DNA from: Myxococcota bacterium
GTDB lineage: Bacteria > Myxococcota_A > UBA9042 > PHBI01 > JACKFB01
Assembly (NCBI GenBank): GCA_041389525.1
Contig: JAWKRR010000022.1
Span: forward strand, 19,130-83,129
Length of the DNA stretch: 64,000 nucleotides
Direction of reading: 5' to 3'
In this document: positions 3,874 to 35,065 of the stretch, piece by piece
Layout of the letters: the number at the start of each line of letters is the position of its first letter
Numbering within the stretch: the first letter of the stretch is position 1
Notes under the pieces: model-generated
Seen by the model: the letters and a program-made list of their open reading frames with translations, nothing else
What the model was told of the DNA's origin: nothing
Databases searched by the model: none
Made by a program: the position numbers and the translations under genes

Positions 3874-3883
3874 GTGGCGGGTC

Positions 3884-8073: not shown

Positions 8074-8126
8074 CACCTGCTAGGGCCCGCTCCGCCGCAG
8101 CTTCGTAGCTGCGTTGTAGCGAGTGT

Positions 8127-8170
8127 GACGGCGGCGTTCGGACCAGCTCCGACGCCGCCGTTTTCGTTTG
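8127..8170 (+). terminator. Rho-independent terminator (GC stem plus T-tract) after the lipoprotein gene
   Basis: gACGGCGGCGTtcggaccagctccgACGCCGCCGttttcgttt: a 10-bp perfect stem followed by TTTTCGTTT. A second GC hairpin CCAGCCCCCacttcGGGGGCTGG lies at 8183-8207. Confidence 0.6.
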
Positions 8171-8234
8171 GGGCGCCGCAGGTGCCAGCCCCCCACTTCG
8201 GGGGCTGGACCTCGCGGCGGCCAGCGTCGATAGT

Positions 8235-16009: not shown

Positions 16010-16146
16010 GGGCGGCGGCAGCCCGTCGCGAGTAGTTTGACCGCGCGCGGTGAGGCCCTCCCGGCTGGCCTCTGTTGCGGGGCCGTGCCACAATCTCGAT
16101 ACGCCACACAGTCGAGACCTCCCTCCAAAATCCAAAGGAGAGCACG

Positions 16147-16605
16147 ATGCGATGTGGGCGAATCATCGGGGCGATCGGCCTCGCTACCCTGCTGTTCATG
16201 GGCTGCAGCGACGACTCGGCGTCCGCGGACGCTGGCGTTGACGCGGTGGCGGATGTCGCGTCGGACGCGGTCGCCGACGCGGTGCCGGACGCGGTCGCCG
16301 ACGCCACGGGCGACACCGACGTGCCAGTCGGCCCCACCGGGTGCGTTCCGCCGAGCTGCGACGACGGCAACCAGTGCACCGTCGACGAGTGCGACACCGC
16401 GCTGCTGACCTGCAAGCACACGCCGAAGACCGACGGCGCGGCGTGCGGCTGCCTCGACGCCGGGCAGTGCTTCGCCAGCACCTGCGTCGGCGGGAACGGG
16501 GTCTGCGACTCCAACGCGCAGTGCGACGACGGGTTCGGCTGCACGGCCGATCGCTGCGACGGCTGCAAGTGCGTGACCGAGGTCATCCCCGACTGCGTCG
16601 AGTAG
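16147..16605 (+). CDS. Cys-rich secreted lipoprotein with (D/A)AVAD linker repeats
   Basis: ATG 16147, lipobox 'LLFMGC'. Linker 'DAGVDAVADVASDAVADAVPDAVADATGDTD'. Mature part has about 18 Cys ('CDDGNQCTVDECDTALLTCKHTPKTDGAACGC...CDDGFGCTADRCDGCKC'). Confidence 0.6.
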   Translation: MRCGRIIGAIGLATLLFMGCSDDSASADAGVDAVADVASDAVADAVPDAVADATGDTDVPVGPTGCVPPSCDDGNQCTVDECDTALLTCKHTPKTDGAACGCLDAGQCFASTCVGGNGVCDSNAQCDDGFGCTADRCDGCKCVTEVIPDCVE

Positions 16606-18822: not shown

Positions 18823-19953
18823 TCAGTCGTCGCCGGAGCCGCCCAGCTTCCCGCTCATCGCCTCGGCCTCAGCCTGCAAGCGCGCGGCCGCCTCGACCTT
18901 GGCTGCGTCGCCGCTGCGCGCCGCCTCGCCCAGCATCTTCCACGCCTGCCGACGAAGCTCGAGGTAGCGCAGCAGGTCCGCCTGGAGCGCGCGCTGCCGG
19001 TCCTGCGCCCGGCTGAGGTCCAGCGCCCGAAAGCGCGCCTCGGCGGCCGTCCAGGGCGAGATGACTTGGGCCTCCAGCGCGTCAGCGAACTCCGCGTCGG
19101 TGATGCGCCCAGCTTGAGCGTCCTCGATGAGCTCGCCGTAAGCCGCCACCACCGTCTTTTCGACAGACGCGAGCTGGTCTATCTCGCCCTGCAGGTCGGG
19201 GAGCTTGGGCAGGTTCAGGGTGGCGCCGTAGATCGCCGCGGCCGACGCGAGACCGACGCCCAGCGCCCGCAGCAGCCGCCGGTCCGGGCCGCCCGCGCGC
19301 AGGGTCGGCGCCAGCCCGAGGCCACACAGAAAGCCCGCCGCCAGCCCGCCCAGATGCGCGGCCATGTCGATGCCGGGCACGGCCATGCCGAAGGCGACGT
19401 TGTAGACCACGAAGAGCCCGGCGTTCTTGGCGATGCCGCTCACCGCCGCGCGCGGGATGATGCCGCGGCGCATGACCACGACGCCGAGCAGGCAGCCGAA
19501 GACGCCGAAGACCGCGCCCGACGCCCCAGCGCTTACGACGTAGGGGTTCCACCACGTGCTGGCCAGGCTCCCCGCGAGCCCGCTGGCCACGTACATCACC
19601 ACGAAGCTCGCGTTGCCGACGATGCGCTCGACCATGCGGCCCGCGTCCCACAGCACGTACATATTGAACGCGATGTGCACGACGCCGATGTGGATGAACA
19701 TCGCCGCCGCGAGGCGCCACCACTCGCCCGACGTCGTCAGCGGCGCGTAGTTGGCGCCCCACTGCAGCAGGTCGGGCACGGTCGGCGAGAAGAAGTGCAC
19801 GCCGCTGACCACCATGGTGACCCAGACCGCGAGGTTGGCCAGCACCAGCAGGGGCGTGACCCAAATCCGCGGAGTCATCCGGTGCAGCAGGAGCGCAAAC
19901 TCCATCTGGTCCCGCTCTTCCAGTAGCGCCGTCACTGCGTCGTCGTCAGCCAT
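18823..19953 (-). CDS. rhomboid-family intramembrane serine protease with a long C-terminal soluble extension
   Basis: Rhomboid motifs 'GASGAVFGVFG' (catalytic Ser) and 'AHLGGLAAG' (catalytic His) within 6 TM helices. About 150 aa of Ala/Glu/Arg-rich coiled-coil-like tail follows. Confidence 0.75.
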   Translation of the reverse strand: MADDDAVTALLEERDQMEFALLLHRMTPRIWVTPLLVLANLAVWVTMVVSGVHFFSPTVPDLLQWGANYAPLTTSGEWWRLAAAMFIHIGVVHIAFNMYVLWDAGRMVERIVGNASFVVMYVASGLAGSLASTWWNPYVVSAGASGAVFGVFGCLLGVVVMRRGIIPRAAVSGIAKNAGLFVVYNVAFGMAVPGIDMAAHLGGLAAGFLCGLGLAPTLRAGGPDRRLLRALGVGLASAAAIYGATLNLPKLPDLQGEIDQLASVEKTVVAAYGELIEDAQAGRITDAEFADALEAQVISPWTAAEARFRALDLSRAQDRQRALQADLLRYLELRRQAWKMLGEAARSGDAAKVEAAARLQAEAEAMSGKLGGSGDD

Positions 19954-20271
19954 GGCCGCATCATATCGGCGGGGGCGCGGTCGTCCACTGGGTTGGGCGT
20001 GTGCGACCGGATGTTGCGCCCTCTCCAGAGCCGTCCCCGGACGATCGGCTCGGGGTCTTCAGCGCGGTCCGATTGTTTCCGGCAGGTAACAAAACGGTTT
20101 ATTTTCGCGCCCTTTGTGACCGCGTCCGGCCCCCCATCGCGGCCTGGGAAAGGGCCAGTCATTCCGGGGGGAAATCGGGGGTGGCGCGGCGCCCGAGATC
20201 GCGTGTCAAGCGCCCCGACGAGCCCGTGATGCCCTTGCAAGACGGCGGCTCGAGGCGCAACGTAGCGGTCG

Positions 20272-23200
20272 ATGAGACTACTGATACAGCACCGTACTTC
20301 CTACATCTACCCGCGCCCCGCCAACCTCGGACCCCACGTAGTCCGCCTCCGCCCCGCGACCCACGCCCGCGCCCACATCGAGAGCTACAGCCTCACGGTT
20401 CCGGACGAAGCGCTGGTCCACTGGCAGCAGGACCCCCAGGCAAATCACGTCGCTCGGCTCACGTTCCGCGACGGAGTCCGCTTCGAGCGTTTCGACGTCG
20501 TGGTCGAGATTACGGCGGACATTCGGCCGGTGAACCCGTTTGACTTCTTTGTCGACGAGTACGCGACCGATCTGCCATTCGCCTACCCGGAAGAGCTGGC
20601 GCGCAGTCTGGCGGCATACCTCGAGACCACGAGCCCCGCTTACGAGGCGGGCCCGCTCTTCGAGGCGTTTGTGGCGGCACACCCGGGCCACGGCGGCACG
20701 GTGGCCTACGTGGTCGAGCTGGCCGGGAAAGTGGCGGCGAGCGTGCGCTATGTCATCCGCGAGGAGTCCGGCGTCTGGACCCCCGAGGAGACGCTGGCCC
20801 AGGGGCGCGGCTCGTGCCGTGACTCGGCCGTGTTGCTGGTCGCCGCCCTCCGACGCGCCGGCCTGGCGGCCCGATTCGCCAGTGGATACCTGGTACAATT
20901 GGCCGACGAGGGCATGATCCCCGACCAGCCGCGCGGCGTGGACCGCGACGTCGTCGACTTGCACGCCTGGGCCGAGGTGTATCTGCCGGGCGCCGGCTGG
21001 GTCGGCATCGACGGCACCAGCGGGCTGCTCTGCGGTGAAGGGCACATTCCGCTGGCCTGCACGCCCTCGCCGGGCCTCGCCGCCCCGCTGGAGGGCACCA
21101 GCGACGTGTTCGCCAGCGCGCTCGACTTCGCGATGATCGTCGGTCGGGTCGGCCACGAGGCCAGCCCGACCACCCCCTACACCGAGGCGACGTGGCAGCA
21201 GCTGCTTGCCCAAGCCGCGGCCGCCGACGAGCGCCTGGTCGAGGAGGGCCTGCACCTGACCCTGGGCGGCGAGCCGACCTTCAACAGCCGCGAGCACCCC
21301 GACGAGCCCGAGTGGGGCCCCGAGGCGCTGGGCGACACCAAGTGGGCGCTGGGGCTGACCCTGGCGGATTCGCTCAGGCGGCGCTTGGCTCCGGGCGGGC
21401 TTGTCTTTCAACGCCAAGGCAAGCACTACCCCGGCGAGTCCTTGCCGCGCTGGGCCCTGGACATCATCGCGCGCCGCAGCGGCGAGCCGATCTGGCGCGA
21501 GATGCCCGCGCCCGCCGCGCCGCCGAAGGCCGACAAGCACGCCGCCGCCAAAGCGGCCCCGGACGCCGCGCTGGCCAAGGACGCCGAGGCCTTCGCCCGA
21601 GACCTGGCCACCCGCCTTGGCTTCGCCGACTTCCTGCAGCCCGCCTACGAGGACCCCTGGCCCTTCTTGATGGCCGAGCAGAGCTTGCCGCCCGACGAGG
21701 ACGCCCTCGCGACCAACCTCCACGACCCCGAAGACCGCCGCCGCCTCGCCCGAATCCTCAATCGCGGCCTGGGTGAACCGGCCGGTTGGGTGCTGCCCTT
21801 CATCCGCATCAAAGACCGCTGGCACAGCTCGAAGTGGGCCTTCCGCCGCGGCCACATCTTCCTGCTGCAAGGCGACAGCCCCGTGGGCCTGCGCCTGCCG
21901 CTGGGCTCGCTGCCCGAGTGCCTGCCGGTGCCCTCGCCCGTCGAGCCCGCCATCGTGAAGAAGGACCCGCGCCTCGTCGACGAGCCGGAGCCCGATGAAA
22001 CGGACGCGGGCGACGAGGCCGATGACCCGCGCGAGGTCCGCACCGCGCTCTGCGTCGAGCCCCGCGACGGCGCCGTCCACGTCTTCATGCCGCCGCTCGC
22101 CAGCGCCGAAGAGTTCTTCACCGTGGTCGAGCTCATCCAGCAATCCCGCGACGCCACCGGCGTGGACCTCCGCCTCGGCGGCTACTCCCCGCCGTCGGGC
22201 CCCGACCTCTTCCGCTTCGCCGTAACTCCCGACCCCGGCGTGCTCGAGGTCAACCTCCCGCCGGTCGCGTCCATCGCCGAATACGACCCGCTGATCCACG
22301 CCGTCTTCGACTGCGCGCTCGCCTCGGGCCTGCACTCCGAAAAATACATGCTCGACGGCCGGCAGCAGGGCAGCGGCGGCGGCAACCACCTGACCATGGG
22401 CGGCCCGAAGCTCCTCGAGAGCCCGTTCTTGCTGCGCCCCGACCTGCTCGCCAGCCTCATCACGTTCACGCAGCACCACCCGTCGCTGTCCTACCTGTTC
22501 ACCGGCCTCTTCGTGGGCCCGACCTCTCAGGCCCCGCGCGTCGACGAGGCCCGCCACGACTCGCTCTACGAGCTCGAGCTCGCGCTGGAGCGCGCCCACG
22601 ACACCCTGGAAGACGACGAGCCGCCCGTCCCGTGGCTTGGCGACATGCTCTTCCGGAACCTGCTCATCGACGTCGCCGGCAACACGCACCGCGCCGAGAT
22701 CTCCATCGACAAGCTCTTCGATCCCGGCGGCGCCCACGGCCGCCAGGGCCTCGTCGAGCTCCGCGCCTACGAGATGCCGCCCCACCCGCGCATGGCGACG
22801 GCCCAAGCCGCCCTCGCCCGCACCCTCATCGCCGCCTTCTCGCGCACCCCCTACCGCGCGCCGCTGGTCCGCTGGGGCCAAGCCCTGCACGACCGCTTCC
22901 TGCTGCCCTACTACCTGTGGCGCGACTTCCAGGACGTCCTGGACTGGCTCGAAGCCGAGGGCGTGCCCCTGCCCGCCGACGCCTACCTGCCCTTCGTCGA
23001 CCTCCGCTGCCCCCTGGTCGGGCGGCTCCACGCCGGCGACGTCACCGTCGAGGTCCGCAACGCCCTGGAGCCCTGGCCCGTCCTGGGCGAGCAGACCACG
23101 GGCGCCGCCACCTCGCGCTACGTCGACAGCTCCATGGAGCGCGTCGAGCTGCGCGTCCAAGGCCTCACCCCCGAGCGCCACGCCATCGTCGTCGCCGGCC

Positions 23201-23595
23201 TCGAGGTCCCACTGCGCCCCACCGAGACCGCCGGCGAGCTGGTCGGCGGCGTGCGTTTCCGCGCCTGGGCCCCGCCCTACTCCCTCCAGCCCCACCTGGG
23301 CATCCATCACCCCCTCCGGATCGACGTCGTCGACCGCTGGGCCGACCGCAGCCTGGGCGGCGCCGCCTACCACGTCTGGCACCCCGAGGGCCGCGCCTTC
23401 GACGGCCAGCCCCTGACCCGCTTCGAGGCCGCCGCCCGCCGCGCCCAGCGCTTCACCCAAGAGGGCCCCCTGCCCTGGCCCGTCCGCCCGACCCCGGTCG
23501 CGCCTCACCCGGACACCCCCTACACCCTCGATCTCCGCCGCTTCCAAGTCGACCACCCCATGCCCACCGCGCCGCCCGCCGACGAAGCGGAGTAG
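20272..23595 (+). CDS. large transglutaminase-family protein (Bact_transglu_N, transglutaminase-like core, DUF2126-type C-terminal region), 1107 aa
   Basis: N-terminus '[28 protein letters not shown]' is the Bact_transglu_N signature. Transglutaminase core '[30 protein letters not shown]...[23 protein letters not shown]' (Cys, His, Asp). The long antisense ORF 20278..23652(-) is an artefact. Confidence 0.85.
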
Positions 23596-23654
23596 CCCGT
23601 GGCCATGTCCGCGCCCTGCCGCCCCCGCCCCCGCCTTTGCCCACGGAGCCACCC

Positions 23655-25106
23655 GTGACCCCCACGCTCTTCGAGAACTACACGCCCGAACCCGACGCCT
23701 TCGACGAACTCTTCGGTCGCGTCGGGATGCCCCGAGACCCCTTCGCGCCGCTGCTCACCGAGGTCGAGCGCGCCATCGACAACGACTTCGAGCGCCTCCA
23801 ACGCCTCGCAGACCGCGTGCTGCTGCAGTCCGGCGTGACCTTCTCCGTCTACGCGGACCAAGCCGGCACCGAGAAGATCTTCCCCTTCGATCTGCTGCCC
23901 CGCGTCATCAACGCCACCGAGTGGGGCCACCTCGACCGCGGCCTGCGCCAGCGCGTCCAAGCGCTGCAGCTCTTCCTCGACGACGTCTACGGCGACCAGC
24001 GCATCCTGGCCGAGGGCATCATCCCCAAAGAGCTGGTCCTCGGCGCCAGCCAGTACACGCCGCTGGTCTGCGGTATCAAGCCCGCCCGCGGCGTGCGCAT
24101 CCACATCGGCGGCATCGACATGGTGCGCGACGGCGCCGGGACCTGGCTGGTCCTCGAAGACAACGTCCGCACGCCCTCCGGCGTCTCCTACGTGATGGAG
24201 AATCGCCTCGTCACCAAGCGCGTCTTCGCCGCCGCGTTCCGCGAGGCCCAGGTCCAGCGCGTCGACTTCTACCCGTCGAAGCTGGCCGAGAGCCTGCGCT
24301 CCGTCGCGCCCTGCGACCCCTCCGAGGCCACCGTCGTCGTCCTGACGCCGGGCATGCACAACTCCGCCTACTTCGAGCACAGCTTCCTGGCCCGCACCAT
24401 GGGCCTGCCGCTGACCGAGCCGGGCGACCTCTACGTCGAAAACGACCACGTCTGGCTCAAGATGACCCAGGGCCCAAGGCGCGTGGACGTCATCTACCGG
24501 CGCATCGACGACGCCTTCATCGACCCGGCCGCCTTCCGCCCCGACACGCTGCTCGGCGTGCGCGGCCTCATCGGCGCCTGGGCGAAGGGCAACGTCGCCC
24601 TGGCCAACGCGCCCGGCAACGGCGTCGCCGACGACAAGGCGATCTACCCGTACGTGCCCGATATGGTCAGGTTTTACCTGTCTGAAGAGCCGATCCTCGA
24701 GCAGGTGCCGACCTGGCTCTGCGACCGCGAGGACGAGCGCAAGTACGTGCTCGAACACCTCGACGAGATGGTGGTCAAGTCGGTGGACGAGGCCGGTGGC
24801 TACGGCATGTTGATGGGCCCCAGCGCGTCGAAGGCCGAGCGCGACGCCTTCGCCGAGCGCATCAAGGCGACGCCGCGCAAGTACATCGCCCAGCATCGCC
24901 TGGAGCTGTCGACCTGCCCGACGTGGATCCCCGAGACCAAGCGCTTCGAGCCGCGCCGCGTCGACCTGCGGCCCTACATCCTGACGGGCGCCGACGGCCC
25001 CTGGGTGCTGCCGGGCGGGCTGACGCGCGTGGCGCTGCCGAAGGGCTCCTACGTGGTGAACTCGAGCCAGGGCGGCGGCTCCAAGGACACATGGGTGCTG
25101 CGGTGA
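23655..25106 (+). CDS. circularly permuted ATP-grasp protein (DUF404/DUF407 type)
   Basis: GTG 23655. '[17 protein letters not shown]...QSGVTFSVY...[11 protein letters not shown]...[21 protein letters not shown]' is characteristic of the CP ATP-grasp family encoded next to alpha-E proteins. The frame is shared with the Arg-rich upstream part of ORF 22632..25106, which is not coding. Confidence 0.85.
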
Positions 25107-25127
25107 TGGGGGCCGACACACATGACC

Positions 25128-25142
25128 GATCTCGGGCTGGCG
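25128..25142 (-). repeat. REP-like motif copy (GATCTCGGGCTGGCG, inverted orientation) between the ATP-grasp and alpha-E genes
   Basis: Exact reverse complement of CGCCAGCCCGAGATC. Other copies: 3147-3161(+), 12911-12925(+), 39093-39106(+, coding), 41088-41101(-, variant), 45348-45361(-), 45972-45986(+), 59542-59555(+), 57417-57430(-, variant, coding), 20190-20200 (variant). Confidence 0.6.
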
Positions 25143-25167
25143 TTCTCGGCCTCACGGAGGTGACCAA

Positions 25168-26145
25168 GTGATTTCACGCGTCGCAGACCACTGCTTCTGG
25201 CTCGGGCGCTATCTCGAGCGAACGGAGAGCACCTCGCGGATGCTCTTCGTGACCGCAAACCTGGCCCTGGACACGGAGATCGCGTCCAGCGACGTGTGGC
25301 GGCCTGTCATCATCGTGTCGGGCGAAGAGGAGCGCTTCCTCGAGCGCTTCGACGAAGAGCGCGCGGGCGACGCCGAGACCGTGCAGGACTACCTGACCTG
25401 GGACCCGCAATGCGGCGTCTCGCTGCTGGCGTCCATCGACGCGGCGCGCTGGAACGCCCGGGCGATGCGCGAGGTCATCAGCCTGGAGGTGTGGGAGACC
25501 GTCAACGAGCTGCACCTGTGGCTGCGTACCGACGCCGCGCGCGGCCTCTGGACCGACGGGCGCTACGATTTCTACCGGCACATCAACCGCCAGGTGCAGC
25601 TCGTGCTGGGGCAGATCCACGGGACCATGCTGCACAACCACGCCATGGACTTCATCTGGATGGGCGTGCTGCTGGAGCGCACCGGGCAGACCGCGCGCAC
25701 CCTGGACGTCCACCACCACGTGCTGACCCAGCTCGAGGCGCGCGCCGCCGACCCGGGCGTGGGCATGGTGCTGTGGCCGTCGCTGCTGCGGGCGTGCTCG
25801 GCACTCGAGCCCTTCATGAAGAGCAGCGGCGGGGTCATCAGCGGGCGCCGCGTGGCCGATTTCCTGCTGCTGGAGCGGGAGTTTCCGCGTTCGGTTCGCT
25901 TCTGCGTGCGCCGCTCGTGGGAGTGCTTGAGCCGCATCCGGCCGCCGACCGCCGCGAACCTGCCCGGGGGCGAAACCCTCGAGCGGGTGCGGGCTCTGGA
26001 CGCTTGGATGCAGGGGATTTCGACGGAAGGGCTTTCCCACGACCGATTCCACGATATCCTCACGCACGTCGTCGACGAGACCGCCTCCATCTGCGCGGGC
26101 CTCGGAAACGAGGTCCTGGGTCACGGCGACGCGCCCCAGGCCTAG
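25168..26145 (+). CDS. alpha-E domain protein (DUF403)
   Basis: 'MISRVADHCFWLGRYLERTESTSRML' is the canonical alpha-E N-terminus. 62-bp gap from the ATP-grasp gene. Confidence 0.85.
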   Translation: MISRVADHCFWLGRYLERTESTSRMLFVTANLALDTEIASSDVWRPVIIVSGEEERFLERFDEERAGDAETVQDYLTWDPQCGVSLLASIDAARWNARAMREVISLEVWETVNELHLWLRTDAARGLWTDGRYDFYRHINRQVQLVLGQIHGTMLHNHAMDFIWMGVLLERTGQTARTLDVHHHVLTQLEARAADPGVGMVLWPSLLRACSALEPFMKSSGGVISGRRVADFLLLEREFPRSVRFCVRRSWECLSRIRPPTAANLPGGETLERVRALDAWMQGISTEGLSHDRFHDILTHVVDETASICAGLGNEVLGHGDAPQA

Positions 26146-26155
26146 CGCCCGGGCC

Positions 26156-27913
26156 TTGCCGCCTACCGCCGTCGCGCCCCGTCCGGAGACCGTCTTGCCC
26201 AATATGCTCGCGATGTCCTTCGAGGGCGTGCTCGCCCCGTCTTTTGAACTGCGCGGGCTGCGCACCGGCCCCCTCCCGGACGGCTGGGGCGTCGGCTTCT
26301 ACGGTGGAAAAGAGCCAGCCGCCACCGTGCTAAAAGAGCACGCGCCGAGCCCCGGAGGCATGCGCTCGGAGCTCATCAAGTCCTGGGATCACCTGTCGTC
26401 ATCGACCTTCCTGATGCACATCCGGCGCGCGCGCTGGGGAAGCATCAGCGACGCCAACACGCAGCCCTTCGTGCGGACCTGGGGCGGGCGCGACTGGATG
26501 TTCGCCCACGCGGGCTCGCTGGACACGGTGCCGGCCATCAGCGGCCCGTCGCTCTTCGAGCCGGTCGGCAGCACCGACAGCGAGCTGGTCTTCTGCATCC
26601 TGATGAACCGCATCGCCGAGCGCGGCTGGCGGTCTTTGGGCGAGGTCGACATCGACGAGACGCTGGCGCTGCTGCGGAACATGGACGACTACGGCAGCTT
26701 CTCGGTGGTGCTCTGCGACGGCACGGACCTGCTGGCGTACACCGACTGCCAGGGGCAGGCGCCGCTGTATCTGTGGGAGCGCCGGCCGCCCTACAACAGC
26801 CTGACCTTCGGCGACGTGGACCTGAAGGTGGACCTCTTTAGCCGAGGTATCACCAGCCGAAACGGCATCGTGCTGAGCTCCGAGCTGCTCGAGCAGGACG
26901 GCCCGCCGGCGAAGTGGCAGCAGATCCCGTCCGGCGAGCTGCTCATCGCGCGCCAGGGCACGGTGCGGCTGCGCACGGGCAGCCAGCACATCGCGCCGCG
27001 GCTGCACGTCTACTCCGCACCCGCACCGCCGGGTGGCGTCGAGCCCAAGACCTTCCGCGTCCGCCACAGCAGCGTCTACACCTACGAGAAGGCGGTGGAG
27101 CGCAGCGACCACCTGCTGCGGCTGACCCCCATCGAGGACGCGCTGCAGCGTGTGAACTCGCACAGCATCCAGGTCTCGGTCGACGGTCGGGCCCGCGACT
27201 TCGAGGACGTCTTCGGAAATCGCTGCCGCCGCCTGCTCATCGAGACGCCCTTCACCGAGATGAGCATCGTCGCCGAGAGCATCGTCGAGGTGCGCGACAC
27301 CGACCCCTTCCACTACCGGCCGCTGCGCGCGCGGACCCGCATCCCGCTGGTCTGGATGCCGTGGCAGCGCCACATGCTGGCGCCCTACATGCTGCCGCCG
27401 GAGCTGCCCGAGTCGCAGCTAGGCACCCTGACCGACTACGCGATGAACTTCGTCGAGCGAAACGACTACGACCTGGTCCAGACCCTGCTCGACATGAACC
27501 TGACCATCTTCAACGAGTACAAGTACGAGCAGGGCTCGACGACCCTGGCGACGACGGCCTTCGAGACCTACGTCGACCGCCAGGGCGTGTGCCAGGACTT
27601 CGCCAACCTGCTCATCGCGATGTCGCGGCTGCTGGGCGTGCCGGCCCGCTACGCCGCCGGCTACATCTACACGGGGCCCAAGGCGGTGAACCAGGTGCAG
27701 TCGGAGGCCTCGCACGCGTGGGTGCAGTGCTACCTGCCCGAGCTTGGCTGGAAGGGGCTGGACCCGACGAACGGCCTGGTCACCCAGACCGACCACATCC
27801 GCGTGGCGGTCGGCCGCAACTACGTCGACGCCACGCCGACGGGCGGCACCATCTACGTCGGTGGGCTGGGCGAGACCCTGGTGGTCGACGTCCAGGTCGA
27901 GCCCATCGCGTAG
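26156..27913 (+). CDS. fusion protein: YafJ-type class II glutamine-amidotransferase-like (Ntn) domain plus C-terminal transglutaminase-like cysteine-protease domain
   Basis: The N-terminal domain aligns with E. coli YafJ ('DGWGVGFY' vs DGWGITFY; 'NTQPF' vs NTHPF; 'GRDWMFAHAGSL' vs GRNWTYAHNGQL; 'PVGSTDSELVFCIL' vs PVGETDSEKAFCWL). The C-terminus 'GVCQDFANLLIAMSRLLGVPARYAAGYIY...SHAWVQCYLPELGWKGLDPTNG' is a Bact_transglu/TGase core. The start is ATG 26156 or 26204; 11-bp gap from the alpha-E gene. Confidence 0.8.
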   Translation: MPPTAVAPRPETVLPNMLAMSFEGVLAPSFELRGLRTGPLPDGWGVGFYGGKEPAATVLKEHAPSPGGMRSELIKSWDHLSSSTFLMHIRRARWGSISDANTQPFVRTWGGRDWMFAHAGSLDTVPAISGPSLFEPVGSTDSELVFCILMNRIAERGWRSLGEVDIDETLALLRNMDDYGSFSVVLCDGTDLLAYTDCQGQAPLYLWERRPPYNSLTFGDVDLKVDLFSRGITSRNGIVLSSELLEQDGPPAKWQQIPSGELLIARQGTVRLRTGSQHIAPRLHVYSAPAPPGGVEPKTFRVRHSSVYTYEKAVERSDHLLRLTPIEDALQRVNSHSIQVSVDGRARDFEDVFGNRCRRLLIETPFTEMSIVAESIVEVRDTDPFHYRPLRARTRIPLVWMPWQRHMLAPYMLPPELPESQLGTLTDYAMNFVERNDYDLVQTLLDMNLTIFNEYKYEQGSTTLATTAFETYVDRQGVCQDFANLLIAMSRLLGVPARYAAGYIYTGPKAVNQVQSEASHAWVQCYLPELGWKGLDPTNGLVTQTDHIRVAVGRNYVDATPTGGTIYVGGLGETLVVDVQVEPIA

Positions 27914-27951
27914 CCCCCGCCGCCCCAACCCCTGCGCCCCGCGAGGCCCCC

Positions 27952-28317
27952 ATGCTGCAGAAAGTCGCCTTCACCCTGGTCCCGATCAAGGACGCCGCCC
28001 GCGCCCGGGCCTTCTACGAGGACACCCTCGGCCTGACCCGCGGCAGCCACCACGAAGACGGCACGTGGACCGAGTACGACCTGCCCGGAGGCGGCTGTCT
28101 GGCGCTCTTCCGCTCCGACGACCTGCAGCCGAGCAACACCGCCGGCAGCACCGTCGCCTTCGAGGTCGACGACCTCGACGCGCTCAACGCGACACTCAAA
28201 TCCCAAGGCGTCACCTACGCCCAAGACATGATCCACTCCCCGGTGTGCCGGATGTCGGTCATCGTCGACTCCGAGGGCAACGGCCTGCTCCTCCACGAGC
28301 TCAAGGCGAAGCCCTAG
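27952..28317 (+). CDS. VOC (glyoxalase/bleomycin-resistance fold) family protein
   Basis: 121 aa. 'VAFTLVPIKDAARARAFYEDTLGL' and 'TVAFEVDDLDALNATLKSQGV' form beta-alpha-beta-beta-beta VOC modules. It is the in-frame tail of ORF 26914..28317, whose upstream part is Arg/Ala noise. Confidence 0.65.
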   Translation: MLQKVAFTLVPIKDAARARAFYEDTLGLTRGSHHEDGTWTEYDLPGGGCLALFRSDDLQPSNTAGSTVAFEVDDLDALNATLKSQGVTYAQDMIHSPVCRMSVIVDSEGNGLLLHELKAKP

Positions 28318-28383
28318 CCCGCCCTGCGCGCCGGCCGCGCGGCGGCGCCTCGGCGCGCGGCGGCGCAGGGGCGGCCGGGCGGG

Positions 28384-29223
28384 TTACTTGCCGTCGAGGG
28401 CGGCGAGGAGTCGCTTGGCGTAGGCGTCGCGGTCGACCGCAAAATTGTCTTTGCGGTCGGGGTTTTCGACGACGTAGATGGCCTTGTCGACCAGCTTCTT
28501 CTGCTTGGCCTGCAGGGCCTTCATGTCCTTGAGGGAGAAGAGCTGGTCCTTGCTGCCCACGATGAGGGTGATGCCGGTGAGCTGCTTGCCGGGGGCGCCG
28601 TCGAGGGCCGTCTGGGGCTCGTAACGCTTCTCGTAGCCGGCGAAGGGGACCTCCATGGGCGTGTCCCAGCTCGAGAAGCGCCGCTCGAGATCCTCCATGG
28701 AGAGAAATGGCGTGTCGGCGATGATGCGCGTCAGCTCGGGGCGGCCGTAGCCTATGCCGAGGGCGAGGCCGGCGCCGATTCCCCAGCCGTAGACCGCGAA
28801 GGACTTGCCGTGGGTCTTGCGGCAGTAGTCGAGCATCGTCGCGTAGTCGTCCTGGAAGTGCGGGTAGATGAACATGTTGTTGTCGATCTCGAACTCGCTG
28901 CTCTCGCCGAAGCCGCGGTAGTCGAAGGCCACCACGTTGAACTGCCCGGTGAGGGCGTCGACGCGGCGCAGGTAGTCGCCCATGTTGCCCTCGCCGTTGT
29001 GGCTGATGAGCACGAGCTTCGTGGTCTTCGTCTTGGCCGGGAAGGTCCAGACGTTGAGCGTGGCGGTGCCGTCGTTCGTGGGGACCTTGGCCTCGGTGAA
29101 GGCCATGTTGAACTTGTCCGGGCGCTGCTTGTAGGTGCGGCTTGGGTTCAGGGCCATCGCGTCGGCGGCGACGAGGGTGGCGAGGGCCGCGAGGGCGGCG
29201 GTCAGGGCGGTTTTGCGCAGCAT
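28384..29223 (-). CDS. secreted alpha/beta-hydrolase-fold-like protein (nucleophile motif atypical)
   Basis: Signal peptide 'MLRKTALTAALAALATLVAADAMA'. 'LVLISHNGEGNMGDY', 'VVAFDYRGFGES' and 'FAVYGWGIGAGLALG' resemble the oxyanion/nucleophile-elbow region of prolyl-oligopeptidase/DLH-like hydrolases, but Gly sits where the catalytic Ser is expected. AT-poorer, Lys-rich composition. Confidence 0.45.
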   Translation of the reverse strand: MLRKTALTAALAALATLVAADAMALNPSRTYKQRPDKFNMAFTEAKVPTNDGTATLNVWTFPAKTKTTKLVLISHNGEGNMGDYLRRVDALTGQFNVVAFDYRGFGESSEFEIDNNMFIYPHFQDDYATMLDYCRKTHGKSFAVYGWGIGAGLALGIGYGRPELTRIIADTPFLSMEDLERRFSSWDTPMEVPFAGYEKRYEPQTALDGAPGKQLTGITLIVGSKDQLFSLKDMKALQAKQKKLVDKAIYVVENPDRKDNFAVDRDAYAKRLLAALDGK

Positions 29224-29510
29224 GGGCGGGGCTCCTGGAGGGTAGGGCGCCGCCCCAGCCCCGAGGCCGCGGCGAGGATGACGCCGAGTGTGTATAATGG
29301 GGGGAGTTTACTGGCTGGGCGGTCGGTGTCGAGCACACGGGACGCGCAGCGCCGGCGGCGTAGATTCAGCAATCGCGCGTTTGGTGCGTTGTTTCGGTTG
29401 CCGGGACTGGGTTGTGCCCGTAGATGGATGGAGTTCTGGGGATCGCAGCCCAGCTCGACGCCGCCCGGTCATCCGCTCCCGACCTGTGTTTAGACGATGA
29501 GGACCTCTCG

Positions 29511-30116
29511 ATGGCGCGACCCAAATCATTCGATGTCGACGAGGTGCTGGAGCAGGCCGCGACGCTGTTCTGGAACCAGGGCTACGAGGCGACCTCGATG
29601 CGCGACCTCGAGAACGAGCTCGGCGTGGGGCGGCAGAGCCTCTACGACACGTTCGGCGACAAGCGCTCGCTCTTTCTCAAGGCGCTGGAGCGCTACGCGA
29701 AGGATGGCGAGAGCTTCTGGGCTGGCATGGAGGGCCCCGACGCCGGCTTGGCGGAGCTGCGGACCTGGTTTGACGCGCTGGTGGACCACGCGGGCCGCGA
29801 CGGGAGGCGGGCGGGCTGCTTTGTCGTCAACACGGTGGCGGAGCTTGGCGACCAAGACGAGGGCGCGAACGCCATCTGCCGCAGGAGCCGCGAGACCCTG
29901 GCGAAGCGATTCCGGAACGTGCTGGAGAACGCCGTGCGCCGCGACGAGCTGCCCAGCCCGGCCGACCTGGGCGCGGCCGCCGATTTCCTGGTCGCCCAGA
30001 CCTACGGCGTGCTGCTGATGGGCAAGAACGGCGCCGCCAGAGACCGCCTCCGCGCGGCCACCGCCCAGGCGCTGCGAGCCGTAGGGGTCGGGTCCGGACT
30101 TAAGACTTGCTCTTGA
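29511..30116 (+). CDS. TetR-family transcriptional regulator
   Basis: N-terminal HTH 'VLEQAATLFWNQGYEATSMRDLENELGVGRQSLYDTFGDKRSLF' is the TetR_N signature. ATG 29511. Confidence 0.8.
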   Translation: MARPKSFDVDEVLEQAATLFWNQGYEATSMRDLENELGVGRQSLYDTFGDKRSLFLKALERYAKDGESFWAGMEGPDAGLAELRTWFDALVDHAGRDGRRAGCFVVNTVAELGDQDEGANAICRRSRETLAKRFRNVLENAVRRDELPSPADLGAAADFLVAQTYGVLLMGKNGAARDRLRAATAQALRAVGVGSGLKTCS

Positions 30117-30149: not shown

Positions 30150-31142
30150 ATGGCACGTACAGCACGCATTCAGGCTCCTGGGCTTTGGCATCACGTGATG
30201 AACCGCGGGGTTGGGCGCGGGGATGTGTTCGTCGACGACGACGACCGGCACGGGTTCTTCGAGCTGCTTGAGGACGTCGCCGAGCGGTGGGGGCTGCGGA
30301 CGCACGCGTTCTGCCTGATGGGCAACCACTTCCACCTGCTCGTCGAGGACACGGAGGGAAACCTCGCGCGGGGGATGCGGCACGTGCTCGGCGTCTACAC
30401 GCAGCGCTTCAACCGGCGACACGGGCGCGACGGGTCGCTCTTTCGCGGGCGGTTTCGGTCGCGGCTGGTGCAGCACGAGGAGTACCTCGCGGAGCTTGTG
30501 CGCTACATCCATATGAACCCGGTGCAGGCGGGGCTCGCCGAGCACGCGGGCGACTACCCGTGGTCCAGCCACGGGCACTACATGCGCGGCACGGGCCCCG
30601 CGTGGCTCGCGACGGGGGAGGTCATGGGCCGGTTCGGTGGCGACCCCGAGCGGCTCGACACCTTCGTGCACGCGCGGGTGCCCGACGAGGTCAAGGCGGC
30701 GCTGGACCCGGCGGTCAACCCGAAGCTGCTGGGCGACGACGCGTTCGAGGCGGCTTGGGCCGACCGGCTGCGCGGGCGGCCAGGCTCGGGCCCGGCGGCG
30801 GCTGACGCGCCGGGCCGCCTTCGTAGCGCCGCGCGCGAGGTGATCGCCGCGGTCGCCGCGCACTTCCACGTCAAGCCGGCCGCCATCAAGCGGGCGGTCC
30901 GCGGGCAGCCCAACCCCGCCCGCCACGTCGCGCTGCTGGTCTGCTTGGACTACACGCAGATGTCGAGTCGCGACGTCGCCCGGGCCCTGGCGATGCACCC
31001 CACCAGCGTCGCCTCGCTGGCGCATCGCTACCGCAAGACGATGGCTCAGGACCCCGAGTTCCGGGCGGACGTGCAGGCCGTGCTCGCCGCGCTGCGCGCC
31101 GCCCCCCAGCCTGCGTCGACTCGCGGCGCAGCCAAGAGCTGA
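30150..31142 (+). mobile_element. IS200/IS605-like Y1 HUH transposase of the RAYT type (COG1943) with a C-terminal DnaA-C-like HTH domain
   Basis: 'HHVMNRGVGRGDVF...LRTHAFCLMGNHFHLLVE' carries the HuH motif. 'ELVRYIHMNPVQAGL' and 'YPWSSHGHY' (catalytic Tyr region) are typical of RAYT/IS200-like TnpA. The C-terminal 'HVALLVCLDYTQMSSRDVARALAMHPTSVASLAHR' resembles DnaA domain IV. REP-like copies are scattered in the window (see repeats). Confidence 0.7.
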
Positions 31143-31452
31143 GCGGGCGCGCGGCGAACAAGCCCGCCCGGGTCCGAGGCGAATCTAGAGACGGCGACAG
31201 GCCGATCGGAGATCCTCGGGCCCGAACTCGCCCGCGGTGACGGGTCTTTTTCGCGCCGACCGACCGTCGGGGTTCGCCGTTCGGCAGCGGCGCGCTGGCC
31301 CCGGGGTTGCTCGCCCATAGGGCCGGACCTAGTGCCGCGAGGGTTTCGTCTCGGCGAGCCAGTTACATCGACGGCGCGAATGCGCGTGGCGCACCGGCCG
31401 CGGGTCCGCATTCTAAATGCCTCACACACAATGACTTGGAAGAGGCTCCACG

Positions 31453-34400
31453 ATGCGTAAGCAGACGTTCCGGATTGGCCTGCTCGTGGCCGTTGCTTTA
31501 TTGGCGGGTTGTCCAGACGGCACGACCTCGTCGAACGACGCCACGGCCGATGCGCTCCCCGAGGTCGACGGCTCGACATTCCTCGACAGTGCGGGCGGCG
31601 ACGCGACCGTGGACACCGCGCCCGACGCCACGCCGGACACCGTCCCTGACACAACGGACACGGGCCCCGACGCCACGCCGGACGCGGTCCCCGACGCCAC
31701 GCCGGACGCGGTCCCCGACGCCACGCCGGACGCGGCCCCCGACGCCACGCCGGACGCGGCCCCCGACGCCACGCCGGACGCGGTCCCCGACATCCGCGCC
31801 GGACGCGGTCCCCGACGCCACGCCGGACGCGGCCCCCGACGCCACGCCGGACGCGGCCCCCGACACCACGCCGGACGCGGCCCCCGACGCCACGCCGGAC
31901 GCGGTCCCCGACACCGCGCCGGACGCGGTCCCCGACACCGCGCCGGACACGGCCCCCGACACCACGCCGGACACAGCCCCTGACACCACGCCGGACACGG
32001 TCCCCGACACCACGCCGGACGCTGGCACCGCCTGCGAGTGCGGCCCGACTGCACCGGAAGGTCTGCGGGACGACGCCTGCGGCGGCACCTGCGGTGAGTG
32101 CGCCTCCGGCCAGCTGTGCAGCGCGGACGGCACCGCCTGCGAGTGCGTGCCCGACTGCACCGGAAAGGTCTGCGGCGACGACGCCTGCGGCGGCACCTGC
32201 GGTGAGTGCGCCTCCGGCCAAGCGTGCAGCGCGGACGGCACCGCCTGCGAGTGCGTGCCCGACTGCACCGGAAAGGTCTGCGGCGACGACGCCTGCGGCG
32301 GCACCTGCGGTGAGTGCGCCTCCGGCCAAGCGTGCAGCGCGGACGGCACCGCCTGCGAGTGCGCGCCCGACTGCACCGGAAAGATCTGCGGCGACGACGC
32401 CTGCGGCGGCACCTGCGGTGAGTGCGCCTCCGGCCAAGCGTGCAGCGCGGACGGCACCGCCTGCGAGTGCGTGCCCGACTGCAACGGCGCGGTGTGCGGT
32501 GACGACGGCTGTGGCGGCAGCTGCAGCGCGGACACCCCGACCATCGCGTGCGCCGACGTCTTCACCGGCGTGACCAACGAAGGCGGCGCGACCGCCCTGA
32601 ACAACGCCACCTGGGGCGGGTGCGCGGTGAACGAAGAGTACGACGGTCCCGAGATCGGCTGGGTGTTCACCCCGACCCAGGACTCCGTCGCCACGTTTGA
32701 GCAGACCAACGACCCGGCGTTCGGAGGCATCGGGGGCGTCGGCGACGACGTAGACCTCTTCGTGATCGAGGCGGACGACGCCAACATGTGCTCGCCCAGC
32801 CCGACCGCGTGCCTCAACGCCACCGCATTCCACACCGCCGTGTTCAACGCGGTCGCCGGCAAGACCTACTACCTCATCATGGACGGTTGGACCTCGGGTG
32901 GCGGCTCCGGCATCGTCAACCCCATCGACGTCAGCCTGACCTGCTGCACGCCCGACTGCGCGGGCAAGCTGTGCGGCGACGACGGCTGCGGCGGCACCTG
33001 CGGCGAGTGCGCCGATGGGGACGCGTGCAACGAAGGGGCCTGCTGCACGCCCGACTGCGCCGGCAAGGTGTGCGGCGACGACGGCTGCGGCGGCACCTGC
33101 GGCGAATGCGCCGCCGGGGACACGTGCACCGTGGGGACCTGCTGCACGCCCGACTGCACGGGCAAACTGTGCGGCGGCGACGGCTGTGGCGGCAGCTGCG
33201 GCGGGGACGCCCCGACCATCGCGTGCGCTGACGTCTTCACCGGCCTGACCAACGACGGGGGTCCTGCCACCCTGAACACAGCCACCTGGAACGGGTGCGC
33301 GAGCTCGGAGGCGTACGACGGTCCCGAGATCGGCTGGGTGTTCACACCGACCCAGGACTCCGTCGCCACGTTCGAGCAGACCAACGACCCGGCGTTCGGA
33401 GGCATCGGGGGCATAGGCGACGACGTAGACCTCTTCGTGGTCGAGGCAGACGACGCCAACATGTGCTCGCCGAGCCCGGACACGTGCCTCGCCGCCACCC
33501 GATTCTACGATGCCGAGTTCAAAGCGGTCGCCGGGAAGAGCTACTACCTCATCCTGGACGGCTGGACCTCCGGTGGCGGCACCGGCATCGTCAACCCCAT
33601 CGACGTCAGCCTGACCTGCTGCTTCCCGGCCTGCGACAACCTCAGCTGCGACATCACCGACGGGTGCGGCGGGACCTGCGGTTGCGCCGCGGGAGACACG
33701 TGCAACGCCGGCTCCTGCTGCACGCCCGATTGCGCGGGCAAGCTGTGCGGCGACGACGGCTGCGGCGGCAGCTGCGGTGCCTGCAACGCCGGGGACACGT
33801 GCAACCAAGGGGCCTGCTGCACGCCCGATTGCACGGGCAAGCTGTGCGGCGACGACGGCTGCGGCGGTGGTTGCGGCGAGGACGTCCCGACCATCGCATG
33901 CGCTGACGTCTTCACCGGCCTGACCAATGACGGAGGCTTGACCACCCTGAACAACGCCACGTGGAACGGGTGCGCGGGCGCGGAGGACTACGAGGGTCCC
34001 GAGATCGGCTGGGTGTTCACCCCGACCGAGGACGTCGCCGCCAGCTTCGTGCAGACCAACGACCCGCTGCTCACCGGGGCCGCAGCCGTCGCCGACGACT
34101 TGGACCTCTTCGTGGTCGAGGCCGACGCGGTGGATATGTGCTTGCCGAGCCCAGCCGCGTGCCTCACCGCCACCACGTTGCACACCGCCGACTTCAACGC
34201 GTTCGCCGGCAAGAGCTACTACCTCATCCTTGACGGCTGGACCGGGGGTGGCGGCACCGGAATCGTCAATCCCATCGACGTCAGCCTGACCTGCTGTGTC
34301 CGCTCCTGCGACAAAGTCAGCTGCGGCGGCGCGGACGGGTGCGGAGGGACCTGCGGTTGCGCCGACGGGGACACGTGCAACGCAGGTTCCTGCTGCACGC

Positions 34401-34915
34401 CAGCGTGCGCCCCGGGGGTCTGCGGAGCCGGCTCCGACGGATGTGGCGGCCAGTGCGCCTGCGACGCGGGCTTGGTCTGCGGCGTCGACAACCAGTGCGC
34501 GCCACCCGGGCAGGGCAATGACTGCAGCGACCCCCTGGTCGCCACGGGCGCGCTCCCCATCACCTTGACCGGAGACACCGATCTCTTTTTCGACTCGTTC
34601 ACGGGCGGGGACACCTGCGCGACGAACTTCGGGAATGGCAGCGGTGTTGCCGACGCCGTCTACGAGTGGACTCCCGACGAGACCGGGGCCTACACGTTCA
34701 CCCTGGACGTGGGTGGCAGCGGCGCCGCGCCGAGCTTCTTGCACTACCGCACGGCGTGCGACGGGGCCTGTGACGGGGCAAGCGGAGACCTCTACCAGGG
34801 CGGCGCCGTGACGTGGACCCTGACCGGCGGCACGACCTACCACATCATCGTGGATGGACAGTTCTCCGAGGAGGCCGGTCCCTACACCCTGACCATCTCG
34901 GGGCCGGCTCCCTGA
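31453..34915 (+). CDS. giant Cys-rich secreted lipoprotein built from nested tandem repeats; +1 frameshift near 31793 (pseudogene or repeat-tract sequencing error)
   Basis: ATG 31453, lipobox 'LLAGC'. About 16 copies of an 8-aa (24-bp) TPDA(V/A)PDA repeat. Frame breaks after '...PDATPDAVPD', where 'gacatccgcgccggac' replaces the consensus 'gacgccacgccggac' (1-nt insertion); reading continues in the frame of ORF 31307..34915. Then 4 copies of a 36-aa unit 'DACGGTCGECASGQACSADGTACECVPDCTGKVCGD', three ~225-aa domains ('IACADVFTG...GWTSGGG(S/T)GIVNPIDVSLTCC') and a distinct C-terminal domain. The antisense 1333-aa ORF 31046..35047(-) is an artefact. Confidence 0.6.
31620..32020 (+). repeat. 24-bp in-frame tandem repeat (about 16 copies) encoding (T/A)PDA(V/A/T)PDA
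   Basis: Direct reading: cccgacgccacgccggacgcggtc reiterated with a few substitutions. One unit carries the extra nucleotide that causes the frameshift. Confidence 0.8.
32075..32510 (+). repeat. 108-bp near-identical tandem repeat (4 copies) encoding a 36-aa Cys-rich unit
   Basis: 'gcctgcggcggcacctgcggtgagtgcgcctccggcca' recurs at 32075, 32183, 32291 and 32399 (period 108). Confidence 0.8.
32540..34560 (+). repeat. three ~675-bp tandem copies encoding a ~225-aa domain
   Basis: Units begin 'ccgaccatcgc(g/a)tgcgc(c/t)gacgtcttcaccggc' at about 32540, 33226 and 33890. Each encodes 'EIGWVFTPTQDSVATFEQTNDPAFGGIGG.GDDVDLFV.EADDANMCSPSP..CL'. Confidence 0.75.
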
Positions 34916-35065
34916 TCGGCGTGGCGCGGCGGCGGCGGGCTGGTCCGTCGCCGCCTGCCCACAGCGCGGCGGCTGCTGCCCGATGTGGTCGCCGCCCCGC
35001 CACGGCTGGCTGGCGGTCGGCCGCGAGCGCCGGTATCGTCGTGCCATCGAAACACGGAGGCGGCG

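Follow-up and report, generated by a model that had tools for sequence, protein, structure and literature searches.

The 64,000-nt stretch of DNA analysed here (the window; positions 19,130–83,129 of the forward strand of contig JAWKRR010000022.1, GenBank assembly GCA_041389525.1) comes from a Myxococcota bacterium and carries, between 20272 and 27913, four genes on the + strand, which we call G1 to G4. A sequence-only reading of the window had described them as co-directional and had named their domains, and profile searches bore this out, with every domain scoring far above the Pfam gathering cut-offs. The same reading had assigned the genes to a system recognized by comparative genomics, and the locus is almost certainly a member of it: the known system of circularly permuted (CP) ATP-grasp, Alpha-E and transglutaminase-like proteins, here with a large transglutaminase-DUF2126 partner. 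The ligase, the adjoining Alpha-E gene, the Cys-His-Asp transglutaminase and the conserved linkage that mark this system were all found. The operon type is already known, and the fusion represented by G4 is already auto-annotated in databases. Our main subject is the N-terminal domain of G4, a class-II glutamine amidotransferase (GATase) domain of the N-terminal nucleophile (Ntn) fold that has lost its nucleophile. The genes are the following:

G1: 20272–23595, + strand; 1107 aa, large transglutaminase-like/DUF2126 protein (Pfam)
G2: 23655–25106, + strand; 483 aa, circularly permuted ATP-grasp ligase (Pfam)
G3: 25168–26145, + strand; 325 aa, Alpha-E protein (Pfam)
G4: 26195–27913 (maximal open reading frame from 26156), + strand; 572 aa, fusion of GATase_4, Bact_transglu_N and Transglut_core

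The window has a GC content of ~71%, with values at third codon positions (GC3) of ~0.90–0.92 in the frames of G1–G4, and the long antisense open reading frames (ORFs) across the region are the usual high-GC artefact. G2 starts at GTG 23655 behind a GGAG, and the alignment of its homologues runs from residue 1. For G4 the most likely start is TTG 26195, with a GGAG 6 nt upstream, which drops a 13-residue extension relative to the maximal ORF; we prefer it to 26156 because the N-termini of the homologues, all of which open M-P-N-L-L-A-M-S-F, begin there. The resulting 572 aa is also the length of the two database proteins closest to G4. ATG 26204 could serve as an alternative start. After start correction, the intergenic gaps measure 59, 61 and 49 bp (G1-G2, G2-G3 and G3-G4, respectively), the last shrinking to 10 bp with the maximal ORF of G4. 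A terminator and promoter scan of 19800–28500 returned terminator-like sites at or below the shuffled expectation, none of them within the intergenic gaps. Co-transcription of G1–G4 is thus supported indirectly, by short gaps, the lack of convincing internal terminators and conserved order. No transmembrane-like segments were found in G1–G4, and the system is cytosolic.

The G4 protein matches GATase_4 (E = 6.3e-64), Bact_transglu_N (E = 1.2e-19) and Transglut_core (E = 4.8e-19) in Pfam, and falls into two parts:

GATase_4-like domain of G4: 26198–26995, + strand (Pfam and column statistics)
Transglutaminase-like module of G4 (Bact_transglu_N plus core): 27053–27766, + strand (Pfam), catalytic triad intact

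An AlphaFold2 (AF2) model of G4 based on 121 sequences (mean identity 58%) reached a pLDDT of 85.4 and a pTM of 0.84; an earlier model, based on 16 sequences and including the 13-residue N-terminal extension, had a pLDDT of 54 and was discarded. In Foldseek searches, the N-terminal half of the model matched the YafJ-like protein PA1307 best (PDB 1TE5; TM score 0.80, E = 2.8e-17), followed by EgtC (TM score 0.67), PurF and GlmS, and the C-terminal half matched the transglutaminase-like protein 3ISR. Beta-lactam synthetase (PDB 1JGT/1M1Z) was also among the matches. At the sequence level, too (phmmer E = 1.3e-26), the N-terminal domain shares its family with YafJ/PA1307 (1TE5) and EgtC (4ZFJ/4ZFK/4ZFL), and the R, N-x-x-P-F and G-x-T-D-x-E motifs of the YafJ/EgtC family are kept. 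The N-terminal domain of G4 truly has the class-II GATase/Ntn fold.

Class-II GATase domains of the YafJ/EgtC type belong to the Ntn amidohydrolases and do not form amides. In PurF, Cys1 is the nucleophile, Arg73 and Asp127 hold the alpha-carboxylate and the alpha-amino group of glutamine, respectively, and Asn101-Gly102 forms the oxyanion hole; from motif alignment and these established roles, we take Arg77, Asp128 and position 106 of G4 to be the equivalents of PurF Arg73, Asp127 and Asn101. Stand-alone GATase_4 proteins open M-C-E-L-L-G-M-S and the window protein and its close homologues M-P-N-(M/L)-L-A-M-S, and because these N-termini align ungapped, it is a proline, Pro2 of G4 (codon CCC, 26198–26200), that sits at the position of the Cys nucleophile. 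The oxyanion Asn of the H-N-G motif is likewise replaced, by Ala106 (26510–26512), so that the window protein reads H105-A106-G107. Arg77 (26423–26425) and Asp128 (26576–26578) are retained, as verified at the codon level. Thus, whereas YafJ and EgtC are stand-alone proteins with Cys1 and an oxyanion Asn, the G4 domain is fused to a transglutaminase and has Pro and Ala in their place.

The substitutions extend to the whole clade. At 76 loci the residues after the initiator Met are P-N in 67 cases and P-S in five, and never Cys; among the 121 aligned G4 sequences, Pro2 and Asn3 are each at least 90% conserved. With the isolated domain as query, we also searched a set of 1.84 billion representative proteins and classed the matches by residue 1 and by transglutaminase fusion. 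All 125 members of the window's clade have Pro at the Cys1 position and none has the oxyanion Asn, which is replaced by Ser (81), Ala (41) or Gly (3), while Arg77, Asn88, His105, Gly107 and Asp128 are kept in 125/125. Transglutaminase-fused members as a whole carry Pro, Ser or Thr at residue 1, save one match scored as His, in which the N-terminus is probably misaligned. The Ser and Thr residues belong to a distant fused clade (29–35% identity in the domain), which has the oxyanion Asn in 9 of 12 sequences. The Cys-bearing relatives that were aligned are without transglutaminase fusion (58/58), and 55 of these 58 have the oxyanion Asn.

Because both the Cys nucleophile and the oxyanion Asn are lost, the canonical amidotransferase mechanism should not be possible in G4, where the predicted ligand pocket nevertheless remains strongly conserved. 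The name 'class II glutamine amidotransferase' given to this clade in public records is probably misleading. The proposal of the sequence-only reading that the GATase domain couples an amide-forming step to amide cleavage is therefore not supported: the family consists of amidohydrolases, and both the Cys nucleophile and the oxyanion Asn are missing clade-wide. That GATase_4 domains fused to a transglutaminase have lost the nucleophile throughout, with Pro in its place in Myxococcota and Ser/Thr in the distant clade, together with the parallel to Anbu discussed below, appears to be undescribed in the literature searched, of which Iyer et al. 2009 was not part.

The transglutaminase half of G4 is intact. 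Its triad, Cys466 (27590–27592), His507 (27713–27715) and Asp523 (27761–27763), is invariant in the 121 sequences and was verified at the codon level, and across 291 aa this half shares 29.6% identity with the stand-alone transglutaminase from an Anbu-type operon of Ralstonia. A second transglutaminase-like unit heads G1, which is composed as follows:

Bact_transglu_N of G1: aa 5–80, + strand (Pfam E = 9.5e-18)
Transglut_core of G1: aa 146–247, + strand (Pfam E = 4.3e-18)
DUF2126 (PF09899, 'putative amidoligase') of G1: aa 282–1089, + strand (Pfam E = 5.9e-301, profile positions 5–826 of 826)

The G1 triad, Cys182 (20815–20817), His231 (20962–20964) and Asp247 (21010–21012), is invariant in 28 homologues, again with verified codons. 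For the DUF2126 part, neither a sequence search nor a profile of 28 G1 sequences found a PDB relative, matches being limited to the transglutaminase region, and a permissive scan to an E-value of 10 revealed no second Pfam family. Our literature searches found no functional study of DUF2126 or of related COG or PF families. In many Myxococcota loci, an extra ORF of ~560–630 aa lies between the homologues of G1 and G2 (L026 3744–5438, L018 4452–6233, L008, L019, L010, L071); it opens like the DUF2126 region of G1 (…GGEPTF…) and has no transglutaminase part. The window operon is without such a second DUF2126-like paralogue between G1 and G2.

Of the two genes in between, G2 matches CP_ATPgrasp_2 (PF14403, E = 2.2e-161) and CP_ATPgrasp_1 (PF04174, E = 4.2e-139), and a CP-ATP-grasp structure from structural genomics, PDB 3N6X, matches it over its full length (E = 4.1e-153). 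G3, 61 bp downstream of G2, matches Alpha-E (PF04168, E = 6.7e-73), and its ER motif is Glu17-Arg18 (25216–25221); a sequence search found no PDB relative of G3, and a permissive scan no second Pfam family in it. NCBIfam has no model for G1, G2 or G3; for G4, the EgtC equivalog TIGR03442 scores 51.7 bits against a cut-off of 218.65.

To place the locus among its relatives, we examined the neighbourhoods of G4 homologues. The closest proteins (85–87% identity) come from metagenome-assembled genomes (MAGs) of uncultured Myxococcota or 'Deltaproteobacteria', and the same three-domain architecture recurs at 57–59% identity in Sorangium, Chondromyces, Minicystis, Kofleriaceae, Nannocystaceae and Anaeromyxobacteraceae. 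A genome scan yielded 80 loci, nearly all from Myxococcota, with two Planctomycetota MAGs and one Spirochaetales MAG in addition; 54 of the loci were informative, having at least 6 kb of upstream sequence. G2, G3 and G4 are adjacent and co-directional in 32 of the 54, and in 29 of these 32 G1 lies within 10 kb, either directly upstream, or divergent, or 1.7–4 kb away with a stand-alone DUF2126-like ORF in between. Some other loci have the order G1-G4, with G2-G3 downstream or on the opposite strand, and in 12 of the 54 the G4-type fusion is found without G1–G3 within 10 kb (L014, L017, L023, L031, L069 and others); such lone or reordered loci may be paralogues or rearranged clusters. The distant Ser/Thr-type fusions (L083/L084) sit among the same genes for DUF2126-transglutaminase, CP-ATP-grasp and Alpha-E proteins. 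Since the linkage recurs across genomes, the four-gene arrangement is not due to chance. The YafJ-type domain, which the sequence-only reading had regarded as an extra of this particular copy, is indeed present, but the survey of the 80 loci identifies the GATase_4-transglutaminase fusion as the standard form in Myxococcota rather than a one-off.

In a plasmid and chromid collection, 158 records contained a G2 homologue, and the 51 GATase_4 matches there were stand-alone YafJ-type proteins (~31% identity); a single record turned up for both genes, and there ~2.4 Mb separate the G2 homologue from the GATase_4 gene.

The linkage ends with G4, immediately downstream of which lies:

VOC/glyoxalase-fold ORF: 27952–28317, + strand; 121 aa (Pfam E = 7.9e-9)

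This gene had been pointed out before as following the operon directly, and both its fold and its proximity, 38 bp from G4, hold; as a conserved neighbour, however, it drops out, being found downstream of G4 in 0 of the 80 loci, including two relatives at 85–89% identity. Because of this absence we regard it as a lineage-specific neighbour and not as part of the system. More generally, no gene downstream of G4 is conserved, none being common to more than 5 of 63 loci, and these 63 likewise show no conserved gene for a transporter or a small precursor peptide beside the operon. The VOC, rhomboid and alpha/beta-hydrolase neighbours were all rejected as operon members for want of conservation, the rhomboid recurring solely in L001.

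The best-described relative of the locus is the Anbu operon of Proteobacteria and Cyanobacteria, which consists of genes for a CP-ATP-grasp protein, an Alpha-E protein and a transglutaminase-like one, together with Anbu (Valas & Bourne 2008, PMC3235984; Fuchs et al. 2017, PMC5666114; Piasecka et al. 2018, PMC6376114). On a Ralstonia chromid (L081), genes for the CP-ATP-grasp protein, Alpha-E and a 278-aa transglutaminase are followed by one for a proteasome-family Ntn protein; S. meliloti pSymB carries the three-gene core alone. The window shares with the Ralstonia example its three core families, identically ordered (ATP-grasp, Alpha-E, transglutaminase), and an Ntn-fold partner accompanying the transglutaminase, and the Ralstonia transglutaminase aligns over its full length with the corresponding half of G4. 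It differs in that the Ntn partner is a nucleophile-less class-II GATase-type domain fused N-terminally to the transglutaminase, and in that a large transglutaminase-DUF2126 gene leads. The Thr1 proteasome-family Ntn protein that defines an Anbu operon in the strict sense is missing from the cluster, and tblastn with the Ralstonia Anbu-like protein detected no Anbu homologue in either the window or any of the 80 loci. The locus corresponds to the core of an Anbu operon without Anbu.

All four protein families of the window also occur together in Burkholderia cenocepacia H111 (I35_5080-5083/BCAM1233-1236), where a DUF404/407 protein, a DUF403 protein, a transglutaminase and a large transglutaminase protein are encoded (PMC5491218), in a different gene order and with the small transglutaminase not described there as GATase-fused. 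That cluster is sigma54/NtrC-dependent under nitrogen limitation (PMC5491218), and in P. putida nitrogen limitation induces Anbu (PMC5666114). In the window, the sigma54 pattern TGGCAC-N5-TTGCW (up to two mismatches) gave 17 matches against 21 expected by chance. PADLOC returned no matches between the four proteins and known anti-phage defence systems.

The Mycobacterium tuberculosis proteins Rv2411c and Rv2567 are putative G2 homologues of the CP-ATP-grasp family, probably residing in the clusters Rv2409c-Rv2411c and Rv2566-Rv2569c, and we know of no GATase_4 fusion in the mycobacterial clusters. In a 2026 preprint, which labels them neither ATP-grasp nor uncharacterised, Rv2411c and Rv2567 were picked solely as candidates with an ATP-binding domain, and E. 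coli lysates expressing them made no GABA (gamma-aminobutyric acid)-trehalose (10.64898/2026.04.15.718621); we found no activity assigned to either protein in the literature searched. A description of Rv2569c as a 'serine protease' (PMC11081392) was set aside, as the paper makes no mention of transglutaminase. The sole activity documented for an operon of this kind is the liberation of inorganic phosphate from ATP by Yersinia's ATP-grasp protein (PMC6376114), and the Anbu papers themselves call their functional hypotheses unconfirmed (PMC5666114, PMC6376114). The statement of the sequence-only reading that the system is without an experimentally established substrate agrees with this record.

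From the chemistry of the families, a make-and-break cycle can be proposed. G2 would spend ATP on turning a carboxylate into an acyl-phosphate and so form an amide bond, with the Alpha-E protein G3 as its obligatory partner in the role of scaffold or acceptor; a ligation of the same kind is predicted for the DUF2126 part of G1. The Cys-His-Asp transglutaminase-like domains of G1 and G4 would then hydrolyse the resulting amide or isopeptide bond or transfer it, so that the cycle may operate on a peptide or protein side chain containing glutamyl or glutamine. In this scheme the Pro-type Ntn domain may bind free Gln or a gamma-glutamyl group and present it to the transglutaminase site of G4, or gate that site, and it would hold the place that Anbu, likewise of Ntn fold, has in the proteobacterial operons.

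We lean, with modest confidence, towards the view that the Ntn domain of G4 is a non-hydrolytic module for recognition or sensing of Gln or gamma-glutamyl groups, because the binding Arg and Asp are kept while the nucleophile and the oxyanion Asn are lost. Such a role has a precedent. Beta-lactam synthetase and carbapenam synthetase are AsnB homologues whose N-terminal class-II GATase domain is without Cys1 and non-catalytic. Beta-lactam synthetase thus exemplifies the retention of such a domain in a non-hydrolytic role, be it structural or substrate-binding, although it differs from G4 in having an adenylating synthetase as partner, in its unrelated pathway and in its distant sequence similarity.

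Several points weigh against this view. Binding of a ligand by the degenerate domain is a prediction drawn from conservation, and the almost invariant Pro-Asn at the N-terminus might point to catalysis of a non-canonical kind instead of to its loss. Co-transcription of G1–G4 is a prediction, as is the ligase label of DUF2126, which derives from Pfam and, at second hand, from Iyer et al. 2009. The proteins of the Anbu operon did not co-purify and formed no stable complexes, and Anbu was inactive in vitro (PMC6376114); the system is without an established substrate, product or interaction for any member. Finally, the scan for TGGCAC-N5-TTGCW found no sigma54 site upstream of G1 (19953–20272), so the link to nitrogen limitation may not hold in this host.

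Among the alternatives, one concerns the class of substrate and is compatible with a recognition module in G4: the ligases would tag proteins, or Alpha-E itself, with an amino acid or a peptide that the transglutaminase-like domains would take off again, in the manner of deubiquitinases or of Dop/PafA, as opposed to a pathway for a small molecule or peptide metabolite. Iyer et al. 2009 are said, in the Anbu papers and Pfam descriptions, to have read the system as a peptide-ligase or tagging system. Protein tagging is the hypothesis stated in the literature (PMC5666114, PMC6376114), and it accords with the presence of two ligase-type and two peptidase-type modules, with the constant association of Alpha-E with the ligase and with the absence of a conserved transporter or precursor-peptide gene. 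On the other hand, no tag gene or target is known, the operon proteins are without stable complexes (PMC6376114), and the residues kept for binding free alpha-amino and alpha-carboxylate groups point to a gamma-linked or free glutamyl moiety, which is more typical of small molecules, even though a gamma-glutamyl tag on a protein would fit them too. We regard protein tagging as possible but on balance unlikely.

It is more doubtful that the domain performs a non-canonical catalysis in which the secondary amine of Pro1, exposed by removal of Met and lying in the Ntn active site, acts as base or nucleophile on the Ntn scaffold, much as in tautomerases or Fpg/Nei. Methionine aminopeptidase as a rule removes the Met from N-termini that begin Met-Pro, M-P-N or M-P-S opens the protein at 72 of 76 loci, Pro2 and Asn3 are strongly conserved, and the invariant pocket residues argue for selection on the site. 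The concurrent loss of the oxyanion Asn, however, fits inactivation better, and to our knowledge a Pro1 Ntn enzyme has no precedent.

An active glutamine amidotransferase or amidohydrolase, which would release ammonia from glutamine or cleave gamma-glutamyl amides as EgtC does, is very improbable. The strong GATase_4 match, the structural likeness to 1TE5 and EgtC and the retained Arg77 and Asp128 would suit such an enzyme, as would the distant fused clade, where Ser and Thr are legitimate Ntn nucleophiles and occur with the oxyanion Asn in 9 of 12 members. Yet in the window's own clade the nucleophile position is Pro in 125/125 and the oxyanion Asn has given way to Ser, Ala or Gly; the EgtC model gives 52 bits where its cut-off asks for 219, the protein carries neither a synthase nor an acceptor domain, and a start at ATG 26204 would likewise leave the N-terminus without Cys. 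The idea that the four genes are mere neighbours and that the VOC gene, which lies on the strand of G4 and begins 38 bp beyond it, belongs with G4 can hardly be upheld, given that G2-G3-G4 are adjacent in 32/54 loci with G1 linked in 29, that this gene content is common to distant clades and other phyla, and that the VOC gene is absent from 80/80 loci.

The remainder of the window contains several features of its own. Its other neighbouring genes, encoding a rhomboid protein, a FadL-like outer-membrane protein, RecQ, a cytochrome c peroxidase, a Ser/Thr kinase and a TetR regulator, are unrelated to the operon. An alpha/beta hydrolase with a signal-like N-terminus (28384–29223, - strand) is convergent to the operon and not conserved in the 80 loci; the Ralstonia locus L081 also has an alpha/beta hydrolase (11235–12056) after its Anbu-type operon, which looks unrelated to that of the window, and the occurrence of such a gene beside both operons is probably a coincidence. 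Adjoining a TetR-family regulator (29424–30116), a gene at 30150–31142 (+ strand) encodes 330 aa with an IS200-like Y1 transposase domain and a DnaA C-terminal helix-turn-helix. Tandem repeats occupy 31621–33867, first a 24-nt unit in 16.8 copies and then units of 99–108 nt, within a + strand ORF at 31307–34915; the 99–108-nt units encode Cys-rich modules (...CxPDCxGKxCGDDxCGGxCGxC...), which suggests that this ORF encodes a large repeat-containing Cys-rich protein. The antisense ORF at 31046–35047 (- strand, 1333 aa) has no Pfam match, and the sigma54-like matches at 33026–34391 fall inside these repeats and are probably just repeat sequence. A small protein with a sub-threshold match to the Dicty_CTDC Cys-rich repeat (16054–16605, + strand) and a 610-aa Ser/Thr protein kinase (8109–9941, + strand) are typical myxobacterial content. 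At 2001–4000 the GC content dips to 0.634, compared with ~0.70–0.73 elsewhere, a region for which neither an Rfam family nor an evident high-GC3 ORF was noted; the window as a whole gave no Rfam matches.

The set of CP-ATP-grasp, Alpha-E and transglutaminase-like proteins is distributed over many bacterial phyla and is nitrogen-responsive in some proteobacteria, and it has been without a substrate since 2008–2009. The myxobacterial variant swaps Anbu for a domain with relatives of understood ligand preference, namely for free glutamine or gamma-glutamyl groups, and by retaining exactly the residues for binding and losing those for catalysis it may offer a testable clue to the substrate from one soluble domain. 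Possibly it also adds to the cases in which an enzyme domain has been put to new use in recognition. Taking these elements together, we tentatively raise the possibility, speculative as it is, that the Pro-type domain is a Gln or gamma-glutamyl sensor that allosterically switches the fused transglutaminase, and with it the entire cycle of ligation and hydrolysis, according to nitrogen status, or that its exposed N-terminal Pro is a catalytic residue new to the Ntn-hydrolase scaffold. If either were true, the series from Cys in the stand-alone proteins through Ser/Thr in the distant fused clade to Pro in Myxococcota would record the repurposing of an Ntn enzyme, and a Gln or gamma-Glu moiety would be indicated as the substrate determinant of Anbu-type operons.

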